NCBI GenBank assembly: GCA_951406725.2 | Contig: OX597830.1 | Span: forward strand, 77,810,001 to 77,874,000 | Direction of reading: 5' to 3' | Length of the DNA: 64,000 bases | Source: Octopus vulgaris | Taxonomy: Eukaryota | Part shown: in pieces, positions 4,242 to 63,768 of the stretch | Numbering within the stretch: position 1 is the first letter of the stretch | How the letters are laid out: every line of letters starts with the position of its first letter | The notes under the pieces: generated by a model | What the model was told of the DNA's origin: nothing | Databases searched by the model: none | Seen by the model: the letters and a program-made list of their open reading frames with translations, nothing else | Made by a program: the position numbers and the translations under genes

Positions 4242-4393
4242 GATCTTATAAGTATACACATTTATATATATACATTTCTCTAAATATTTTCGTATTCGTA
4301 GTGTATATGCATATACAGTCAGTTATGTAAAATAGTTTATGTGTATAAACATTTGTGAGTGTACATATGTGTGTGTGTGTGTTTATAAATGTG

Positions 4394-4448
<55 letters not shown>

Positions 4449-4501
4449 ACATAAATACATACGTGCATAATTATGTGTAAATATATAGTTATATACATTG
4501 G

Positions 4502-16895: not shown

Positions 16896-16899
<4 letters not shown>

Positions 16900-17090
16900 T
16901 GCCATGATAGATCGTTAGCTACTACACACATTTTTTTCTCACCTTGTTTTTTTTCTGTGTCCCTTTCTGTAGAAGAGCGAAGGCTCGAAACGTAAAAGAC
17001 TTTTTCTATTCCTGAGCGATATACTAAAACATTTGTTTGTTTGTACACCGCCTGCCTTCATCTTTTGTTTATTTCCATAAACTTTCCGTT
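16896..17090 (+). mobile_element. HHR-bearing mini-element family G, flanked by (TA)n on both sides
   Basis: Homologous to 17581-17775 and 63574-63768. Confidence 0.85.
16963..16998 (+). ncRNA. Minimal type-I hammerhead-like motif, CUGUAGA core
   Basis: CUUU-CUGUAGA-A-GAGC-GAAG-GCUC-GAAACGUA-AAAG; stems I and II pair. Confidence 0.65.
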
Positions 17091-17580
17091 TATATATATA
17101 TAAATATATATATTACTCATAAAATACAGTGTACATTTAAATACATAAGGAATCCACTCGTGGGATTCAACACGCTAGAAAGAACAGCTAGGTTCTACAA
17201 CCACAAAATTAGGGATAAAATTTGACAGGAACAAAATGAAAAAATAAAACCTCCTACCATCTAGTTTCGTGGACCAACTGGTTTCTGATTTTAGTTTAGC
17301 AAATAAATAATATTCGCCAGGTGAAATCTTCTTCAACAAGTACACCTTAAATTAAATATATAAAACACGAGGCAACCAACTATGTGCCTCTTGTTTATAC
17401 ATCCAAAATTTTTAAAAATCTACTGCGTAGACGCAGTAGATTTATGTGTTTAAAAGAACACTGTATTTTATGAGTAATACATAGTCTTTGGACTAAATTT
17501 GTACGCCGGGCTACTGGAAGTGAAAATTTCTATTAATTTCCATTTCCCTTCGATATGATTAAGTATATATATATATATAT

Positions 17581-17775
17581 AACGGGAAGCTTACGAAAAT
17601 AAGCAAAAGACGAAGGCAGGTGGAGTACAAACAAACAATTGTATTAGTATGGCGCTCAGGAATAGAAATAAAACAAGTCTTTTACGTTTCGAGCCTACGC
17701 TCTTCAACAGAAAGATTCACAGAAAAGAAACACGGAGAGAGACAAGGAGAGAAAAAAATGCGTGCAGGAGCTAGA
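17581..17775 (-). mobile_element. HHR-bearing mini-element family G
   Basis: Reverse-complement homologue of 16896-17090. Confidence 0.85.
17679..17714 (-). ncRNA. Minimal hammerhead-like motif, CUGUUGA core
   Basis: CUUU-CUGUUGA-A-GAGC-GUAG-GCUC-GAAACGUA-AAAG. Confidence 0.65.
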
Positions 17776-20061: not shown

Positions 20062-20942
20062 CTCAACTGTGGATGAGACTTGTGAAACTCAATAGTTGTG
20101 TTAGAAATTGAAATGAAACAATGAGAGAGTTGGTTCCCGTAGCCATCATCTTCTTTCCATCGAGAGAGAGAGAGAGACAGAGACAGAGAAAGAGAAAGAG
20201 AGACAGAGAGTGATTAGGGGAGAGAGAGAGAGAGGACAGCGAATTGGTGTAAGTATTAAATTGTAATAATAGAACACGTGAAGCCACGTGATGTCTGAAG
20301 CTTTTAGCGACACATCTGCTCGCAACATTTTGCCAGCAGGATCACACGATCGTGTTGCGTTTAACAAGATGAGTACTTTATATCCATACACACACACACA
20401 CATATAAATCTGTACTTATGTGTGTATGTGTAATATATGTGTGTATGTAGCGTGTGTATGTGTATATATACACATACATGCTTATACACGTCTCTCTATC
20501 AATGGCGCTTTTTTAAACATATCTATATGTTTATACTTCTATTTTTCTCTATATATATCTACGAATCTCTCACGCTAGATAGTTATCTCTCGTTTTACGT
20601 GTGTGTGTGTGTGTCTGTGTGGGTGTGTGGGTGTGTGCGTCCGTGTGTGCATGAGTGCGTATGTATCTATATGTAAATGCATTTATATATATATATATAT
20701 ATATTTATACATATATATACGGGATAATATACACATATACACGTATATGTATATACACATGCACACAAACTCATATATGCACACATTTACGTGTCTTCAT
20801 ATACGTGTGTGTGTGTACATATATAGACATATGTGTGTGTAAATATCTATGTGCATAGATTTATTTATATATATATATATATAAATATGTATGTATATAT
20901 GTATATATATGTATATATATATATACATGTATATATATATAA

Positions 20943-25718: not shown

Positions 25719-25962
25719 AACCACACGTGGACGGTCGGCGATTTTCCCTTTTCCTTCTCCTCTATTCTTTTCCATCCCTCCTTTCCGACGAAGAGCCATG
25801 CTCGAAACGTTAGGCACTCCCTCCTTTCACCGAAAGTCAAGCTAATATAATTCTTGTGCACTTCCTCACGTTCGTTTCTTTTCTCAATGTTTTTCTCTTT
25901 TTGTTTTTTTTTTTCTCATCGTGTTTTATATATTTTTTTAATTGTTTGTTCGTTGAGTTGAC
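25719..25962 (+). mobile_element. Diverged HHR-bearing mini-element related to family E (motif 25782-25814)
   Basis: UUU-CCGACGA-A-GAGC-CAU-GCUC-GAAACGUU-AGG; same layout as 56506-56718; ends in (TA)n. Confidence 0.75.
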
Positions 25963-56422: not shown

Positions 56423-56831
<409 letters not shown>

Positions 56832-63573: not shown

Positions 63574-63577
<4 letters not shown>

Positions 63578-63768
63578 AGAATTCACAAAAAAAACACACA
63601 CACACGAAGACAGGTGGTGTAGACAACAAACAGATGTATTAGTATAACGCTCGGGAAGGGAAAAAGTCTTTAACGTTTCGAGCCTACGCTGTTCCACAGA
63701 AAGGGACACAGAAGGAAACAAGGGGATAAATAAAGAACGTGTAGCGGCTAGCGATATATCATGGCATG
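63574..63768 (-). mobile_element. HHR-bearing mini-element family G (motif 63668-63703, CUGUGGA core)
   Basis: CUUU-CUGUGGA-A-CAGC-GUAG-GCUC-GAAACGUU-AAAG. Confidence 0.85.

Follow-up and report, generated by a model that had tools for sequence, protein, structure and literature searches.

Three hammerhead motifs in the window analysed here, a stretch of 64,000 nucleotides of the Octopus vulgaris genome, carry CUGUNGA in their catalytic core, and the U at position 6 (U6), where A is the supposedly essential nucleotide, is the consensus of the whole family (family G) to which they belong. The motif is the pLTR hammerhead of a young autonomous Penelope-like retrotransposon (PLE), and judged on its sequence it has all tested features of a minimal PLE hammerhead apart from A6, with U6 being read along the whole sampled lineage. 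We regard it as moderately probable that the motif acts as a slow, dimer-dependent, probably protein-assisted minimal hammerhead in the terminal repeat of this element.

The motifs in the window

All three CUGUNGA copies reported in an earlier note on this DNA were found again at their positions when re-read from the sequence (Table 1). Each consists, in this order, of CUUU, CUGUNGA, an extra A, a 4-bp stem II of GAGC/GCUC, GAAACGU, H and AAAG; the extra A, absent from the earlier note, sits between A9 and G10.1 in all three. The retention of stem I (CUUU/AAAG) and of GAAACGU-H was likewise borne out in every copy, and the single broken stem II pair that had been claimed for the copy at 63.7 kb proved to be G10.1-C11.1, G10.1 having changed to C (63691) after insertion.

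Table 1. Hammerhead motifs and PLE tails in the window (positions of the window; family G except for the last row)
Feature	Positions	Strand	Details	Basis
PLE pLTR tail, 5'-truncated 3' end, A7/A17 subfamily	16896..17091	+	78% to unit 4248-4470	comparison with the unit; tree
Minimal type I hammerhead	16963..16998	+	core CUGUAGA at 16967	sequence, read directly
Stem I strands of this hammerhead	16963-66; 16995-98	+	CUUU; AAAG	
Core C3-A9	16967-73	+	U6 = 16970	
Extra A	16974	+		
Stem II	16975-86	+		
GAAACGU	16987-93	+	H17 is A17 = 16994; predicted cut 16994/16995	
Truncated PLE tail, U7/A17 subfamily	17581..17773	-	91% to young element	comparison with young element; tree
Minimal hammerhead	17679..17714	-	core CUGUUGA, C3 17710, U6 17707; H17 is A17 = 17683	sequence, read directly
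Truncated PLE tail, older G7/U17 subfamily	63574..63767	-		sequence comparison; tree
Minimal hammerhead	63668..63703	-	core CUGUGGA, C3 63699; H17 is U	sequence, read directly
Sister family H hammerhead, canonical A6	56581..56615	+	CUGACGA, stem I GUUU/AAA	comparison/outgroup, outside family G

By sequence comparison, the window copies of family G are 5'-truncated tails of a Neptune-type PLE, made up of the last 150-220 nt of its unit; being solo tails of a coding element, they do not qualify as non-LTR retrozymes. The first tail is bordered by (TA)n on either side, and the second is a separate insertion with about 80% identity to it. Reading the inverted pair at 16.9 and 17.7 kb as one element or as a cis dimer was rejected, since the two copies belong to different subfamilies and lie on opposite strands. 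Between these tails lies a 42-bp inverted repeat (90%), at 17107-17148 and 17442-17483; an end similar to it was seen at 20660-20708, and it may represent a small DNA transposon. Three A6 motifs are also present in the window: those at 56585 (+) and 35822 (-) belong to the sister family H, and the one at 25785 (+) looks related. Against Rfam, 16930-17040 matched no hammerhead family at E values up to 10, and no hammerhead was among the 150 matches listed of 351 for the whole window, which were microsatellite-driven miRNA noise; a PDB sequence search returned no match.

Positions 6 and 7 across the genome

Genome-wide counts were taken over the 2.8-Gb assembly holding the window. An anchored pattern that left positions 3-9 free (CTTT-N7-AGAGCGTAGGCTCGAAACGT) had 16,446 matches and its reversed control had 0, so that the motif cannot be ascribed to chance. 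A hand tally of the first 100 of these 16,446 matches gave U96/A2/C1/G1 at position 6 and U44/A25/C20/G11 at position 7, with deviations in 1, 3, 3, 3 and 0 rows at positions 3, 4, 5, 8 and 9, respectively; among the core positions 3-9, none other is thus as variable as N7. A further sample, drawn to avoid choosing copies by their motif, was defined by a downstream-flank pattern with 11,471 matches, a pattern that leaves out the youngest subfamily; its first 70 matches were taken, and three truncated copies were dropped. Position 6 was U in 64 and C in 3 of the 67 copies counted, and A in none; N7 was A22/C22/G16/U7 and H17 was A56/U7/C2/G2, while each remaining motif site had a single consensus with decay of the CpG type, and no alternative motif consensus was found in these 67 copies. 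The exact pattern was matched by 26 of the 70 flank-picked copies, from which roughly 44,000 copies can be estimated genome-wide.

Copies with a non-U6 letter in an otherwise intact core number 496 of the 16,446; their letters (C69/A19/G12, hand tally of the first 100 of 496 listed) are led by the transition, the pattern of copies decaying from U. Together with U6 in 64 of the 67 flank-picked copies, this upholds the proposal of the earlier note that U6 is the family consensus and not decay. Its further statement that only N7 varies stands in so far as N7 is free, but H17 also differs between subfamilies. The variation of N7 as CpG decay or copy noise was considered and rejected, because N7 tracks subfamilies (A in 28/28, G in 19/21 and U in 15/15 copies). 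An alternative register, with an extra U before an intact A6, was rejected from the sequence, since it fits N7=A only and would lose G8. In assembled contigs from eight runs of five or six organisms no position-6 variant was found, an absence of little weight, as known N7 variants were missed there too.

The host retrotransposon

The motif was linked to a coding element through a locus, L161, which joins an RT/endonuclease ORF to the U6 motif. A search with its protein returned 15,632 candidates; most of the 150 listed have 94-95% identity to the query and many share one score, which indicates a young burst. From these 150, the 20 elements with the longest open frames (RT plus GIY-YIG) were fetched: all 20 carry CUGUUGA in the 3' repeat, about 500 nt past the ORF, and 12 carry a second CUGUUGA about 4.5 kb upstream; one locus (L188) is a tandem of three units. 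The unit is 4,470 nt long and contains the motif once, about 110 nt before the 3' end of the element; where a motif lies upstream of the ORF, the likely start codon follows it after about 780 nt. Copies stop about 110 nt past the predicted cut and are followed by (TA)n; judging from these 3' ends, it is this UA run, about 110 nt beyond the cut, at which priming appears to take place.

The ORF encodes 1079 aa, with RVT_1 at 454-643 (E 1.4e-7) and a weak GIY-YIG match, under the Pfam cut-off, at 874-907 (E 0.0065); the protein P0002 carries ADKGG (the DKG motif) and CSRPRCRTC (a CxxxxCxxC linker). The traits of EN+ PLEs are present, namely a single ORF with RT and then a C-terminal GIY-YIG (the weak match), partial tandems, 5' truncation and (TA)n targets. 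EN+ PLEs of the Neptune/Nematis type, as described by Craig et al. 2021 (PMC8557442), share with our element the C-terminal GIY-YIG, a CX2-5CxxC linker, DKG, partial tandems, 5' truncation, microsatellite targets and a hammerhead of canonical topology; unlike them, the octopus element has a long Pro/Ser-rich C-terminal extension and a U6 core. By its protein features it therefore appears to fit the Neptune/Nematis type; no named reference protein was found among the 120 homologues listed. Residues ~960-1079 of P0002 and the following 3' UTR form a long C/U-rich low-complexity tract, whose length differs between copies.

The GIY-YIG search returned mostly another PLE family of 781 aa, which is without the U6 motif. 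This second young family (L150-L159) has intact 781-aa ORFs plus an upstream ORF; a minimal hammerhead of the type of the U6 element was not found in these loci, which hold weak UUGAUAA candidates in L151 and L156. Short non-coding derivatives of the U6 element were also observed (L340, L296, L285, L360, L325 and L288), in which the 5' UTR is joined about 70-100 nt before the cut, with several independent junctions at -96; they resemble retrozyme-like offspring. One of them, L340, consists of four full units of 492 bp in tandem, which are nearly identical, together with partial ones; in L296 and L285 the repeat measures 468 bp.

Subfamilies and selection

In trees built from 123 and from 162 copies the subfamilies follow one another like the rungs of a ladder, with many weak nodes; the samples include copies chosen for non-U6, and part was selected with motif patterns. 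Copies were grouped by eye into nine strata of 7-41 copies, and the majority sequences of these were compared in order. Without N7 and H17, 0 of 34 motif columns changed across the nine successive subfamily consensuses, vs 71 of 152 flank columns, with 106 changes (Fisher p=1.6e-8), which argues that the motif was maintained by selection after U6 had been fixed. Selection on the stems, whose absence together with inactive U6 constructs the earlier note had counted against its own reading, is thus found at the level of the lineage, as it is on the core. N7 changed five times and H17 three times, the latter between A and U and never to G, and these two sites that moved are those a hammerhead leaves free; loop II (GUAG) and ACGU are invariant between subfamilies. 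Even with A6 and C6 copies deliberately included, U outnumbers any other letter at position 6 in each of the nine strata. No selection was detected on U6 itself, as a single invariant column is expected at the flank rate with P=0.50, and U6 may therefore be tolerated rather than favoured.

The oldest stratum (825 matches, of which the first 100 were tallied by hand) has U81/C12/A6/G1 at position 6, which is looser than U4 (19 vs 2 of 100, p=1e-4) and not clearly looser than G5 (19 vs 10 of 100, p=0.11); early source elements may have differed from one another at position 6. Two basal A6 copies hint, with weak support, at an A6 ancestor, and since the most basal copy and the outgroup family H both have A6, A to U is the likely direction. 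An A6 subfamily within family G was sought and rejected: 30 loci of the 293 A6 matches are scattered and form no supported clade.

Sister family H shares GCUCGAAACGU with family G and is, like it, an abundant PLE-like family whose core deviates at one position. Among its 32 H-type rows (hand tally, first 100 genome matches), 31 have A6 and 20 have C4 (CCGACGA), and stem I is GUUU/AAAC in many copies. Three loci (L268, L269 and L270) join a 5' half of family H to a 3' half of family G, from different G subfamilies, and all switch within the shared stretch that contains the cut site; either template switching or cut-and-join in heterodimers could have produced these chimeras.

Folding and comparison with known hammerheads

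Stem I of family G (CUUU/AAAG) has 4-5 bp; no compensatory change was found in it within the family, so its pairing rests on complementarity. Stem II with G10.1-C11.1 and the extra nucleotide after A9 is present, GAAAC-GU-H agrees with GAAAN, U16.1 and an H17 other than G, and with the palindromic ACGU as stem III a double hammerhead can be drawn, which is predicted to be 5-8 kcal/mol less stable than two monomers. In a rod hiding ACGU, U6 is predicted to pair with A15.1 with a probability of 0.89 with U7 and of 0.16-0.24 with other N7. When a short stretch is folded, U6 is predicted to cost 1.7-3.7 kcal/mol per dimer relative to A6; with a longer stretch the penalty is small or reversed. A lock through U6 was rejected as a general explanation, because the effect is strong with U7 only and depends on the length folded; in these models the U6-A15.1 pairing is a possible extra brake.

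The minimal hammerheads (min-HHR) in the pLTRs of metazoan PLEs are weak and act as dimers (PMC4209133). They share with the octopus motif the type I topology without a stem III loop, the palindromic CG at 15.2/16.2, the extra nucleotide between 9 and 10.1, G10.1-C11.1, a U-rich upstream region, a single copy per pLTR and the occurrence mostly as solo truncated copies; the extra A and the loopless ACGU palindrome are marks of the minimal PLE hammerhead (Cervera and De la Pena 2014, PMC4209133), of which the motif of family G is best classed as a variant. It differs from them at position 6: all 56 of the 56 rows of their Fig. S3 have A6, a figure biased by a descriptor that fixed the catalytic boxes (the core variant given is U3-A8), whereas here U6 is fixed and CUGUNGA is found in place of CUGANGA in 64/67 flank-picked copies and 20/20 long-ORF elements. 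Its short stem III and its link to PLEs are also shared by the variants of Lunse, Weinberg and Breaker (2017), which according to a review cleave as dimers (PMC6765202).

A natural pyrimidine at position 6 is also known from the A6C hammerhead of phage Bcep176, which is slow but active (PMC3088659, PMC7151607), A6C reducing activity most in Mg2+ with activity kept in Mn2+ (PMC7151607); that example is C and not U, comes from a single phage and does not belong to the dimeric PLE motifs. In a mutational scan, every single change in the CUGA turn is reported to give low activity (PMC9901934). Published natural core variants include U3-A8 (PMC4209133), A6C (PMC3088659) and U4C. Among the papers compared here, no natural A6U (CUGUNGA) hammerhead was found; one may nevertheless be in print, for instance among the variants of Lunse et al. 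2017 or in the supplementary figures of PMC3088659, and core variants in PLE hammerheads are known in principle.

The closest functional comparison is the Poseidon PAc hammerhead of Anolis (Frangieh et al. 2024, PMC11167929). Cleavage by this hammerhead was found to require the PLE protein; the template was mainly RNA that had not been cut, RNA-seq reads with an end at the site were absent, and hammerhead mutants had no effect on insertion in vitro. Both systems have a pLTR hammerhead, an apparently uncut template, AT-rich targets and no ends at the cut site; the Anolis element differs in belonging to the Poseidon clade and in a motif that overlaps the ORF start (here it is upstream of it, at the distance given above), and no change at position 6 is described for it in the text consulted.

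Insertion ends and the cut site

Young copies whose upstream motif is disrupted number 209; of these, the first 100 rows were tallied by hand and 50 were viewed, the second batch being chosen near the cut. About 45 truncations in these 100 rows are spread evenly across the motif, with 3-4 of the ~45 5' ends at the two cut-site positions and 2-4 at their neighbours, and hence no pile-up at the cut site in short young copies. Of 141 copies with a pLTR-5'UTR (tandem) junction, 100 were inspected: 94 extend past the motif, 6 begin downstream of it, and none of the 100 has its 5' end within 3 nt of the cut. Cut RNA used as template would gather 5' ends at the cut; since none gathered there, the templates were uncut or re-joined. 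By analogy with the Anolis PLE, the missing footprint need not imply inactivity, because that hammerhead cuts and yet leaves no reads ending at its site. At L241:1545 (the same place as L360), the upstream tandem copy has an extra A at the predicted cut junction, a single case within an A run.

Proposed mode of action and alternative explanations

In the mechanism we favour, two motifs would pair via the ACGU palindrome to form stem III, and U6 would lower the cutting rate so that the bulk of the RNA persists in an uncut or re-joined state until it has been reverse transcribed, with occasional cutting trimming tandem or read-through transcripts. A ribozyme that is slow and still dependent on its fold would suit an element whose reverse transcription is primed a short way downstream of the motif and has to traverse it. 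The U6 core may have altered or conditional activity, as the earlier note proposed, and U6 is most simply seen as a tolerated attenuating change rather than a favoured one. That U6 is instead an adaptive brake, keeping the ribozyme off during copying and turning it on through the element's own protein, the partner motif or Mn2+, seems unlikely; if true, conditional gating would characterise PLE hammerheads as a class, and core deviations such as U6 in family G and C4 in family H would represent tuned settings, tens of thousands of which are missed by CUGANGA searches.

In the main rival explanation the fold would be retained without catalysis, for instance as a site where the element protein binds or is positioned, U6 marking the loss of the chemistry. 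We judge it improbable, although the absent footprint in short and junction copies, the invariance of loop II between subfamilies, as would be expected of a recognised surface, and the normal insertion in vitro of the Anolis mutants (PMC11167929) all speak for it: the drifting sites are exactly those free in hammerhead chemistry, H17 changed three times by transversion and never to G, and the catalytic bases G8 and G12 are invariant. Full activity of U6 in vivo, rescued by the dimer, a protein or Mn2+, with circular RNA templates and read-through of the re-joined site, we consider decidedly unlikely. A circle model was proposed in PMC4209133, A6C is active in Mn2+ (PMC7151607), and both the elements with near-identical repeats in partial tandems and the 492-bp deletion derivative with its four near-identical full units would suit circles; linear read-through RNA would, however, yield the same insertions, and in L180, L183 and L189 the upstream repeat departs from the downstream one at several sites.

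The motif could also hitchhike as a dead passenger whose ribozyme was killed by U6 in the founder. Inserted copies do decay neutrally, with CpG loss at 15.2/16.2, and a single founder can account for the high copy number, but the 106 flank changes against none in 34 motif columns across nine source subfamilies largely refute this explanation, which we hold to be very improbable. Scarcely credible is the idea that the U6 motifs serve as substrates only, the cutting being done in trans by sister-family hammerheads with A6 and the same ACGU palindrome. Family H, with its shared stretch and its A6 in 31 of 32 H-type rows, would offer such an enzyme, and the three H-to-G chimeras switch inside that stretch; the catalytic half (C3-A9, stem II and G12-A14) is, on the other hand, as invariant as the substrate half, and template switching in the longest stretch of homology between the families would explain the chimeras as well.

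A lineage has here kept its whole motif under selection, across nine sampled subfamilies, with a change at a supposedly essential nucleotide. The U6 motif belongs to a very abundant and recently active element of which intact coding copies exist, and searches with descriptors that fix CUGANGA miss, by a rough estimate, some 40,000 motifs in the Octopus vulgaris genome. With a natural U6/A6 pair and the matching protein at hand, it can be tested whether PLEs select slow or protein-gated cutting.
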